From: an uncultured Gammaproteobacteria bacterium
GTDB taxonomy: Bacteria > Pseudomonadota > Gammaproteobacteria > JAURND01
DNA: 64,000 nucleotides
Assembly (NCBI GenBank): GCA_963714975.1
Contig: CAVQQD010000003.1
Span: forward strand, 686,412-750,411
Direction: 5' to 3'
Within the stretch, counting starts at the first letter, position 1. Every line of letters starts with the position of its first letter. The notes under the pieces were generated by a model, which saw only the letters and a program-made list of their open reading frames with translations, made no database searches and was not told the origin of the DNA. Position numbers and translations under genes: made by a program. Shown here piece by piece: positions 45,871 through 46,255 of the stretch.

Positions 45871-46047
45871 ATGGCTAATTTACAACTTAAAGAAAGTATT
45901 ATTCAACGTATGATGAAGACAAGGAAATGCTCCCATGAAGTAGCAGAAAAGGAGTTTACTAAGCTGACAAAGAATATTCCTGAAAAGGAATGGGGAAAAG
46001 TTGTCGGTGGAGGGGCCGAAGCGCCTACCAAGCTTACTTTGAATTAG
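45871..46047 (+). CDS. double-glycine-leader precursor peptide 1 (58 aa; predicted core GAEAPTKLTLN)
   Basis: Below the ORF-track length cutoff; translated by hand as MANLQLKESIIQRMMKTRKCSHEVAEKEFTKLTKNIPEKEWGKVVGG|GAEAPTKLTLN. AAGGGGG RBS 7 nt upstream. The GG-leader consensus fits (Glu at -8; hydrophobic at -4, -7 and -12). Confidence 0.75.
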   Translation: MANLQLKESIIQRMMKTRKCSHEVAEKEFTKLTKNIPEKEWGKVVGGGAEAPTKLTLN

Positions 46048-46078
46048 AGAAAGCATCTATACAAGGGGGGGTGTTTTT

Positions 46079-46255
46079 ATGGCTAATTTACAGCTGAAAG
46101 AAAGCATAATTCAACGTCTGATGAAGACAAAGAAATGCTCCCATGAAGTGGCAGAACAGGAATTCAATAAGCTGACAAAGAATATTCCTGAAAAGGAATG
46201 GGAAAAAGTTGTCGGTGGAGGAGCGGCGGGGTTAATCAAACCTATGTTTGAATAG
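46079..46255 (+). CDS. double-glycine-leader precursor peptide 2 (58 aa; predicted core GAAGLIKPMFE)
   Basis: MANLQLKESIIQRLMKTKKCSHEVAEQEFNKLTKNIPEKEWEKVVGG|GAAGLIKPMFE. Same RBS context. It is a 208-nt tandem repeat unit of peptide 1, with a ~90% identical leader and an unrelated core. Confidence 0.75.
   Translation: MANLQLKESIIQRLMKTKKCSHEVAEQEFNKLTKNIPEKEWEKVVGGGAAGLIKPMFE

Follow-up and report, generated by a model that had tools for sequence, protein, structure and literature searches.

Two short open reading frames (ORFs) that converge on the operon of a peptidase-bearing exporter raise the question of what they encode and whether that exporter carries it out of the cell. They lie within a 64-kb stretch of contig CAVQQD010000003.1 (positions 686,412 to 750,411 of the forward strand; assembly GCA_963714975.1, from an uncultured Gammaproteobacteria bacterium), which was analysed as a whole and is called the window here. 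An initial annotation, made from the nucleotides alone, had described them as a tandem pair of 58-aa double-glycine (GG) peptides with a conserved leader and unrelated cores, next to a convergent ATP-binding cassette (ABC) exporter operon with a C39 peptidase. Our analysis makes it likely that the two genes encode precursors of an uncatalogued long-leader GG family, cargo that the neighbouring NHLM/NHLP-type type I secretion system would process and export; this estimate covers the processing-and-export reading and not any biological role.

Both ORFs are present as described. In each, the strong ribosome-binding site (RBS) AAGGGGG is followed by an identical 7-nt spacer, TGTTTTT, and then ATG, and the two start codons lie 208 nt apart, in agreement with the initial annotation. 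Its figure of ~90% leader identity over 48 codons also holds (131 of 144 nt, or 91%), as does the loss of similarity beyond them (15 of 30 nt over the next 10 codons). Counted back from the cleavage site after VVGG, both leaders carry the claimed double-glycine consensus, with V at -4, W at -7, E at -8 and I at -12. Differences between the two leaders comprise seven synonymous and five non-synonymous changes (ratio of non-synonymous to synonymous substitution rates, dN/dS, 0.14), and three paralogues in a related locus, L002, gave values of 0.02-0.06; because of these ratios, the two ORFs are real coding genes and not chance. Small ORFs nearby were limited to the pair and their shadow ORFs, the antisense ORFs at 45880-46056 and 45903-46031 being rejected as genes since they are shadows of gene 1. 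No further copies occur in the 64-kb window, and an Rfam scan of 45600-46400 returned nothing except a chance microRNA match.

We then asked how widely the leader is distributed. A word-index homology search with one peptide matched only the window's own two genes. With a profile of leaders taken from the contigs on which ABC1, the C39-bearing exporter subunit, has its nearest homologues (56-71% identity), we recovered 30 members from 5.8 billion proteins, all of them unnamed or "hypothetical" and lacking a Pfam domain, while an exhaustive hidden Markov model (HMM) search of 1.84 billion representatives yielded 25 matches at E <=0.001, including 18 peptides no longer than 100 aa. Related small peptides in public data number 45, most of them immediately next to the exporters most similar to the window's, and these searches indicate that the leader family is real but rare.

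Substrates of C39 ABC transporters carry Gly-Gly (or Gly-Ala/Gly-Ser) at positions -2/-1. Among 43 aligned leader ends of the family, Gly is found at -1 in all 43 and at -2 in 42, Ala or Val at -3 in 41, Ile, Val or Leu at -4 in all 43, Trp, Tyr or Leu at -7 in 39, and Ile, Val or Met at -12 in 37. Positions -4, -7 and -12 together with the GG are those that LahT150 and ComA require for recognition (PMC6363468). An AlphaFold model of the peptide (mean predicted local distance difference test score, pLDDT, 73) places helices at residues 2-18, 22-33 and 38-44, the last corresponding to leader positions -10 to -4, and leaves the core disordered; a search of PDB folds with this model turned up no match at E <1. 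Judged by these features, both peptides classify as double-glycine leader peptides, with the GG itself, hydrophobic residues at -4/-7/-12 on a predicted short helix, and a nearby catalytic C39 exporter.

Assignment of the leader to NHLP, Nif11 or another catalogued GG family did not hold. None of 19 family members matched any NCBIfam or Pfam model at E values up to 10, including the NHLP leader model TIGR03793, and none matched the Nif11-like leader model TIGR03798, which detected two ProcA (prochlorosin) precursors used as positive controls at 5e-27 and 1e-24. In a profile comparison with ProcA, just the final 13 residues aligned, NLSDDELEGVAGG with NIPEKEWGKVVGG (probability 4.8%), and the resemblance to Nif11 is confined to this stretch. 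By these comparisons, the leader family is new to curated databases and combines the cleavage-proximal motif of NHLP/Nif11 with an unrelated N-terminal module.

The convergent exporter operon reported by the initial annotation is likewise present, its nearest stop codon at 46301 lying 45 nt by our measurement from the end of gene 2, and ABC1 is ~2.2 kb from the peptide genes. TIGR03796, TIGR03797 and TIGR03794 are by a wide margin the best NCBIfam matches of the exporter proteins, by several hundred bits in the case of the two full-length ABC subunits. Alignment to PCAT1 (4RY2) showed that the catalytic residues of the ABC1 C39 domain, Gln24, Cys30, His103 and Asp119, are intact; the corresponding residues of LahT (Gln21/Cys27/His101/Asp117) have equal spacing (PMC6363468). 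Because these residues are kept at the LahT spacing, the domain counts as a peptidase of the active type, as opposed to the degenerate C39-like kind. When aligned with ABC1, the N-terminal domain of the second subunit, ABC2, lacks the peptidase Cys, and its nucleotide-binding motifs are canonical. The operon begins with a gene for a cyclic-nucleotide (cNMP)-binding protein of 145 aa, weakly matching TIGR03896 (bacteriocin-type transport-associated protein), and a gene of this kind leads the export operon wherever the position is visible (window, L004, L006-L009), which suggests that a cyclic nucleotide controls export. The convergent operon, comprising the cNMP-binding protein, an HlyD adaptor, the C39-ABC subunit and a second ABC subunit, is most probably the known NHLM/NHLP-type cassette of the LB2SS/LB3SS type.

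Linkage between leader and exporter recurs beyond the window. In seven loci (the window, L002/L003, L004, L005, L006, L007 and L015; Table 1), family members are immediate neighbours of the second ABC gene, and of all homologues the exporters of these co-localised loci are most similar to the window's (ABC1 identity 56-71%). Of the other searches, a genome-contig scan with ABC1 returned only L001, from Eubacteriales, which at 29% identity was of no use; a metagenome DNA scan for leaders of subfamily C, to which the window's genes belong, found nothing; and the corresponding scan for subfamily A recovered five short loci.

From these observations we propose the following course of events. Transcription of the pair would start upstream of 45871 and end at the 46269-92 hairpin. 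A short helix formed by the final ~13 residues of the leader (N-I-P-E-K-E-W-x-K-V-V-G-G) would insert Ile-12, Trp-7 and Val-4 into the hydrophobic groove that the 729-aa ABC subunit offers in its C39 domain, whereupon Cys30 would cut after Gly47. The released 11-residue peptides, GAEAPTKLTLN and GAAGLIKPMFE, would leave the cell through the two ABC subunits, the HlyD adaptor and an unlinked TolC-type channel, most likely unmodified and linear, and the operon's small cNMP-binding protein may gate their export.

Several observations weigh against this account. The peptide genes are convergent with the exporter and stand outside its operon, and ABC1 and ABC2 each score ~10 bits under the trusted NCBIfam cut-offs (843/853 and 700/709, respectively). 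Three loci, L010, L011 and L014, carry a family member but show no exporter as far as their flanks extend. At 11 aa, the window's cores are the family's shortest, and they are uncharged, as against mostly cationic cores elsewhere. Strong conservation of leader residues 1-34 is unexplained by C39 recognition and could mean an unseen partner, for example a modifying enzyme; it might reflect docking onto ABC2, which would fit the argument of Haft and colleagues that the transporter constrains such leaders, or recognition by an unlinked enzyme. Finally, a two-gene nonribosomal peptide synthetase (NRPS), missing from the initial annotation, lies next to the exporter on its upstream side, and another product might therefore use the pump as well. 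In the first of its genes we detected the domains A-T-C, in the second T, C, A, T and a terminal TE; the first gene may run past the window. We considered the NRPS as the source of the true cargo and rejected it: none of the five related loci whose sequence extends upstream of the exporter (L004, L006-L009) contains it, and its GC content is 42-44%, versus 34-37% for the export operon. Because of this absence and the different composition, we treat it as an unrelated neighbour of the exporter.

The cores bear on what the released peptides might do. Across the 45 members, cores have a median length of 21 aa (range 11-45) behind leaders with a median of 48 aa, a mean net charge of +2.1 and a mean hydropathy of -0.56; Cys occurs in only 2 of the 45, and no common Ser/Thr/Cys pattern is apparent. 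Two kinds of behaviour stand out. Subfamily A is single-copy and chromosomal, and its 21-aa core, TAPIPxSLxKxLExLKQSGKF, is conserved over ~20 sequence clusters, which argues for a conserved target and so for a signal or a host factor. Subfamily C, the window's own, is multi-copy with every core different, and such hypervariability argues for diversifying selection. In addition, L002 and L003, from different samples, are identical over 7537 nt and then split precisely where one peptide gene encodes Gly-Gly; within the divergent stretch (7538-7620) they encode the cores ARVQLGSSSPSPAFDSDVETVKRSGRRD and LTDAGTNPFLEN, and the contigs rejoin at the next RBS. Either the core behaves as an exchangeable cassette, or the assembly has joined two paralogues at this point.

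The initial annotation favoured a signalling system, and a role as quorum-sensing or pheromone signals, comparable to ComC or BlpC and compatible with processing and export as proposed, is a speculative possibility. It accords with the very short, linear 11-aa products predicted here, with the constancy of the cNMP-binding protein in the export operon and with the target conservation implied by the subfamily A core. The receiving side, by contrast, is missing from the neighbourhood: the genes scanned between ~38 and 64 kb of the window include no HisKA/HATPase or response-regulator domains, and no sensor kinase or response regulator adjoins the peptide genes in the related loci; L005 has a GAF histidine kinase ~8 kb upstream. 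Several copies with unrelated cores in one genome and core swaps between near-identical strains are also atypical of a single signal, and multi-copy arrays with swapped cores suggest diversifying antagonism at least equally well.

Antagonism of competitors by small microcin-like or polymorphic peptides, again compatible with the proposed mechanism, seems to us rather unlikely as the role. The multi-copy arrays with hypervariable cores and cassette-like swaps at the GG boundary would suit it, as would the bacteriocin-type exporter, the mean core charge given above and signs of mobility. Among the latter, GC content is 34-37% in the export operon (46301-52375) against 48% in prpD and 42-44% in the NRPS on its flanks, suggesting horizontal acquisition of the operon, and with the plasmid-like neighbours seen at some loci (ParA/ParB and Rep3 in L002 and L005) the export system is probably a mobile, horizontally acquired module. 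The window's cores, however, are 11 aa, uncharged and hydrophilic, far outside the size and hydrophobicity of class II microcins; no immunity-like small membrane protein adjoins the peptide genes; and the conserved core of subfamily A fits antagonism poorly. We rank a diffusible signal or host-directed factor first among roles, followed by antagonism.

A third alternative departs from the proposed mechanism itself. If the genes encode precursors of peptides that are ribosomally synthesised and post-translationally modified (RiPPs), the long leader would recruit a tailoring enzyme that is encoded elsewhere in the genome or is unrecognised, and the products would be modified; we consider this doubtful. 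In its favour, leader residues 1-34 are highly conserved although C39 proteases need just the last ~13 (PMC6363468), and modified NHLP and Nif11 peptides are what this cassette usually exports; Haft and colleagues, however, attribute leader conservation to handling by the transporter (PMC2887384). As the initial annotation had noted for the surrounding several kb, no LanM or other lanthipeptide synthetase, YcaO or radical-SAM protein is encoded between ~38 and 64 kb of the window (the NRPS is no RiPP tailoring enzyme), and in those of the loci L002-L011 with enough flank, the peptide genes have no linked tailoring enzyme of a known family. The sole radical-SAM gene seen is in L005, where it sits with housekeeping genes ~6.5 kb upstream of the exporter. 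Nearly Cys-free cores without a shared Ser/Thr/Cys pattern also speak against modification. The loci with upstream flank (L004 and L006-L009) hold only the exporter genes and, adjoining them, unrelated housekeeping genes, to which L002 and L005 add a protein of ~600 aa. This protein is paired with subfamily B members in three loci and may be their partner, which would favour a RiPP; the L002 and L005 copies are 60% identical, the L011 copy has no exporter nearby, and searches for relatives of the protein in Pfam, in the PDB and in the window found none.

That the 47-residue helical part is an intracellular small protein with an incidental GG and tail, or that the ORFs are unexpressed, is very improbable: the modelled three-helix N-terminal part, of moderate confidence, and the three loci without an adjoining exporter would allow it, but the GG and the -4/-7/-12 pattern are essentially invariant, seven loci put the genes beside the exporter, no solved protein shares the fold, and dN/dS of 0.02-0.14 excludes non-coding sequence.

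Processing and export by the adjacent system remain our preferred reading. A more far-reaching extension, which we regard as improbable in its entirety, is that a host-associated Legionellales-like clade uses unmodified peptides of 11-21 residues as signals to bacteria or amoebae, released by cNMP-gated, GG-cleaving type I secretion, with the 34-residue module docking onto the non-peptidase ABC subunit.

Table 1. Coordinates of features in the window and in related loci
Feature	Sequence	Coordinates	Strand	Remarks
Peptide gene 1	Window	45871-46047	+	58 codons; protein MANLQLKESIIQRMMKTRKCSHEVAEKEFTKLTKNIPEKEWGKVVGG followed by GAEAPTKLTLN
Gene 1 leader	Window	45871-46011	+	47 codons ending VVGG; family-wide conservation, purifying selection, GG/-4/-7/-12 motif
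Gene 1 predicted core GAEAPTKLTLN and stop	Window	46012-46047	+	Cut site set by aligning family members that end ...AGG before the cut
Peptide gene 2	Window	46079-46255	+	58 codons; protein MANLQLKESIIQRLMKTKKCSHEVAEQEFNKLTKNIPEKEWEKVVGG followed by GAAGLIKPMFE
Gene 2 leader	Window	46079-46219	+	47 codons ending VVGG
Gene 2 predicted core GAAGLIKPMFE and stop	Window	46220-46255	+	
RBS of gene 1, AAGGGGG	Window	45857-45863	+	7 nt 5' of ATG; motif and spacer as in gene 2
RBS of gene 2, AAGGGGGGG	Window	46063-46071	+	7 nt 5' of ATG; contains AAGGGGG
Sigma-70-like promoter candidate, ATGAAA-16-TATAGT	Window	45827-45854	+	5' of gene 1; 9/12 positions match; weak, such sites being no commoner in the region than in shuffled sequence
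Hairpin, 9-bp stem	Window	46269-46292	.	Between gene 2 and convergent ABC gene; possible shared terminator
ABC exporter subunit 2 (ABC2), 720 aa	Window	46301-48463	-	TIGR03797, 700 bits (cut-off 709)
ABC exporter subunit 1 (ABC1), 729 aa, C39 domain	Window	48460-50649	-	PF03412, 1.6e-31; TIGR03796, 843 bits (cut-off 853)
HlyD-type membrane-fusion protein, 427 aa	Window	50651-51934	-	TIGR03794, 248 bits, above cut-off of 156
Cyclic-nucleotide-binding protein, 145 aa	Window	51938-52375	-	First gene of operon; PF00027, 2e-21; no DNA-binding domain
Two-gene NRPS	Window	52912-58881 and 59181-63956	-	Same strand as, and directly upstream of, export operon
Leader-family genes beside ABC2	L002/L003			Four in L002; the shorter contig L003 covers two
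Leader-family genes beside ABC2	L004			Two
Leader-family gene beside ABC2	L005			One
Leader-family gene beside ABC2	L006			One
Leader-family gene beside ABC2	L007			One
Short HlyD adaptor	L005	9340-9993		
Short HlyD adaptor	L006	9444-10004		
Short HlyD adaptor	L007	9465-9998		
Short HlyD adaptor	L009	9462-10001		
~600-aa protein	L002	5172-6968	-	Divergent; adjoins subfamily B leader peptide
~600-aa protein	L005	14331-16232	-	Divergent; adjoins subfamily B leader peptide
~600-aa protein	L011	8008-9810	-	Divergent; adjoins subfamily B leader peptide

Within the window, the flank beyond the peptide genes is of housekeeping character, with prpD, galU, a 4HBT thioesterase, a SPOR protein, msrB and an M50 protease. 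The window also encodes, at 31277-37933 (+), a P-loop protein of 2218 aa that shows almost no Pfam signal; over ~1600 aa it shares 34% identity with a 2254-aa protein of L007 (2049-8813, -), whose gene is the immediate, divergent upstream neighbour of that locus's export operon. The pairing may reflect conserved linkage or shared genome ancestry. Four other ORFs, at 9458-13414 (+), 13525-15846 (-), 38408-39091 (+) and 39388-39933 (+), have no Pfam domain at E <=1e-5, two of them being large (1318 and 773 aa), and together with the 2218-aa protein they recall effector-rich intracellular bacteria. At L010 (4614-10216; metagenome-assembled genome GCA_018241585.1 at NCBI, 'Proteobacteria bacterium'), a subfamily A peptide sits in syntenic position, and a 1695-aa ankyrin-repeat/OTU protein replaces the export operon, which points to a host-associated lifestyle of the lineage. 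A placement within the Legionellales is plausible for the window. As a separate observation, the HlyD-type adaptor measures merely 177-217 aa in four loci (Table 1), versus 427 aa in the window, and these short forms match the N- and C-terminal parts only, as if the central hairpin region were missing.

Among known systems, one close parallel is with the NHLP and Nif11 (N11P; prochlorosin) families. The TIGR03794/03796/03797 cassette was defined by its association with NHLP and Nif11 leaders of 60-80 aa (Haft et al. 2010, PMC2887384), so that the 47-aa leader, called unusually long in the initial annotation, is not so for this type of exporter. Shared features include a three-gene cassette that is most probably the same, a long structured leader ending in Gly-Gly, paralogues that combine one leader with hypervariable cores, and the alignment of the last 13 leader residues with ProcA. 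In contrast, the N-terminal 34 residues of the window's family are unrelated to either, its leader is shorter, at 47 aa, and its cores are short, hydrophilic and nearly Cys-free, with no accompanying LanM or cyclodehydratase.

The exporter itself finds its nearest named homologues in Legionella proteins, at 44-47% identity. NHLP-type LB2SS/LB3SS type I secretion systems occur in 20-24% of Legionella species, with substrates unidentified (PMC6959600), and the exporter type is accordingly not new in Legionellales; in the later literature, we found no report of a substrate for LB2SS/LB3SS of Legionella. Like the window, these systems have two ABC genes, one with C39, and an HlyD gene, whereas the window's exporter forms a separate clade that exceeds 56% identity to metagenomic sequences only. 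The locus of Legionella sp. D16C41 (L008) also shares the cNMP-HlyD-ABC1-ABC2 order and has two small GG peptides upstream of it (7773-7994 (+) and 8019-8186 (+)), with highly charged cores and, unlike the window's, short (24-31 aa) unrelated leaders; these D16C41 peptides are themselves candidate substrates of LB2SS/LB3SS-type systems.

Class II microcins such as colicin V, secreted by CvaAB/TolC, offer the Gram-negative precedent of a GG leader cut by a C39 ABC exporter that works with an HlyD adaptor and TolC. Their leaders are ~15-19 aa long, their hydrophobic cores span ~60-100 aa, and they have a single ABC gene and an adjacent immunity gene, whereas the window combines a 47-aa leader and 11-aa cores with two ABC genes and no adjoining immunity gene. 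In size, the predicted products come nearer to the GG pheromones of Gram-positive bacteria (ComC/CSP with ComAB; BlpC), which are likewise short, linear, unmodified peptides freed by C39 cleavage after Gly-Gly, and whose leaders are recognised through Leu-12, Glu-8 and Leu-7 (PMC6363468). Those pheromones, however, have ~24-aa leaders and an adjacent sensor kinase and response regulator, unlike the window's system, with its 47-aa leader, no linked receptor and an outer membrane to cross.

Measured against these systems, the processing and export machinery predicted here is of a well-known kind, and the leader family is what is new. The family would supply the first concrete cargo candidates for an NHLP-type exporter in Legionellales-like bacteria, and they are easily synthesised; the cassette would then serve a third long-leader family besides NHLP and Nif11, whose seemingly unmodified cores bear on why such leaders are long. 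Should the 11-mers prove bioactive, few ribosomal peptides that Gram-negative bacteria export would be smaller, and the 47-residue leader would offer a new tag for sending short peptides through a type I system. If the signalling reading were true, peptide communication in the style of Gram-positive bacteria would extend to a Gram-negative intracellular lineage.

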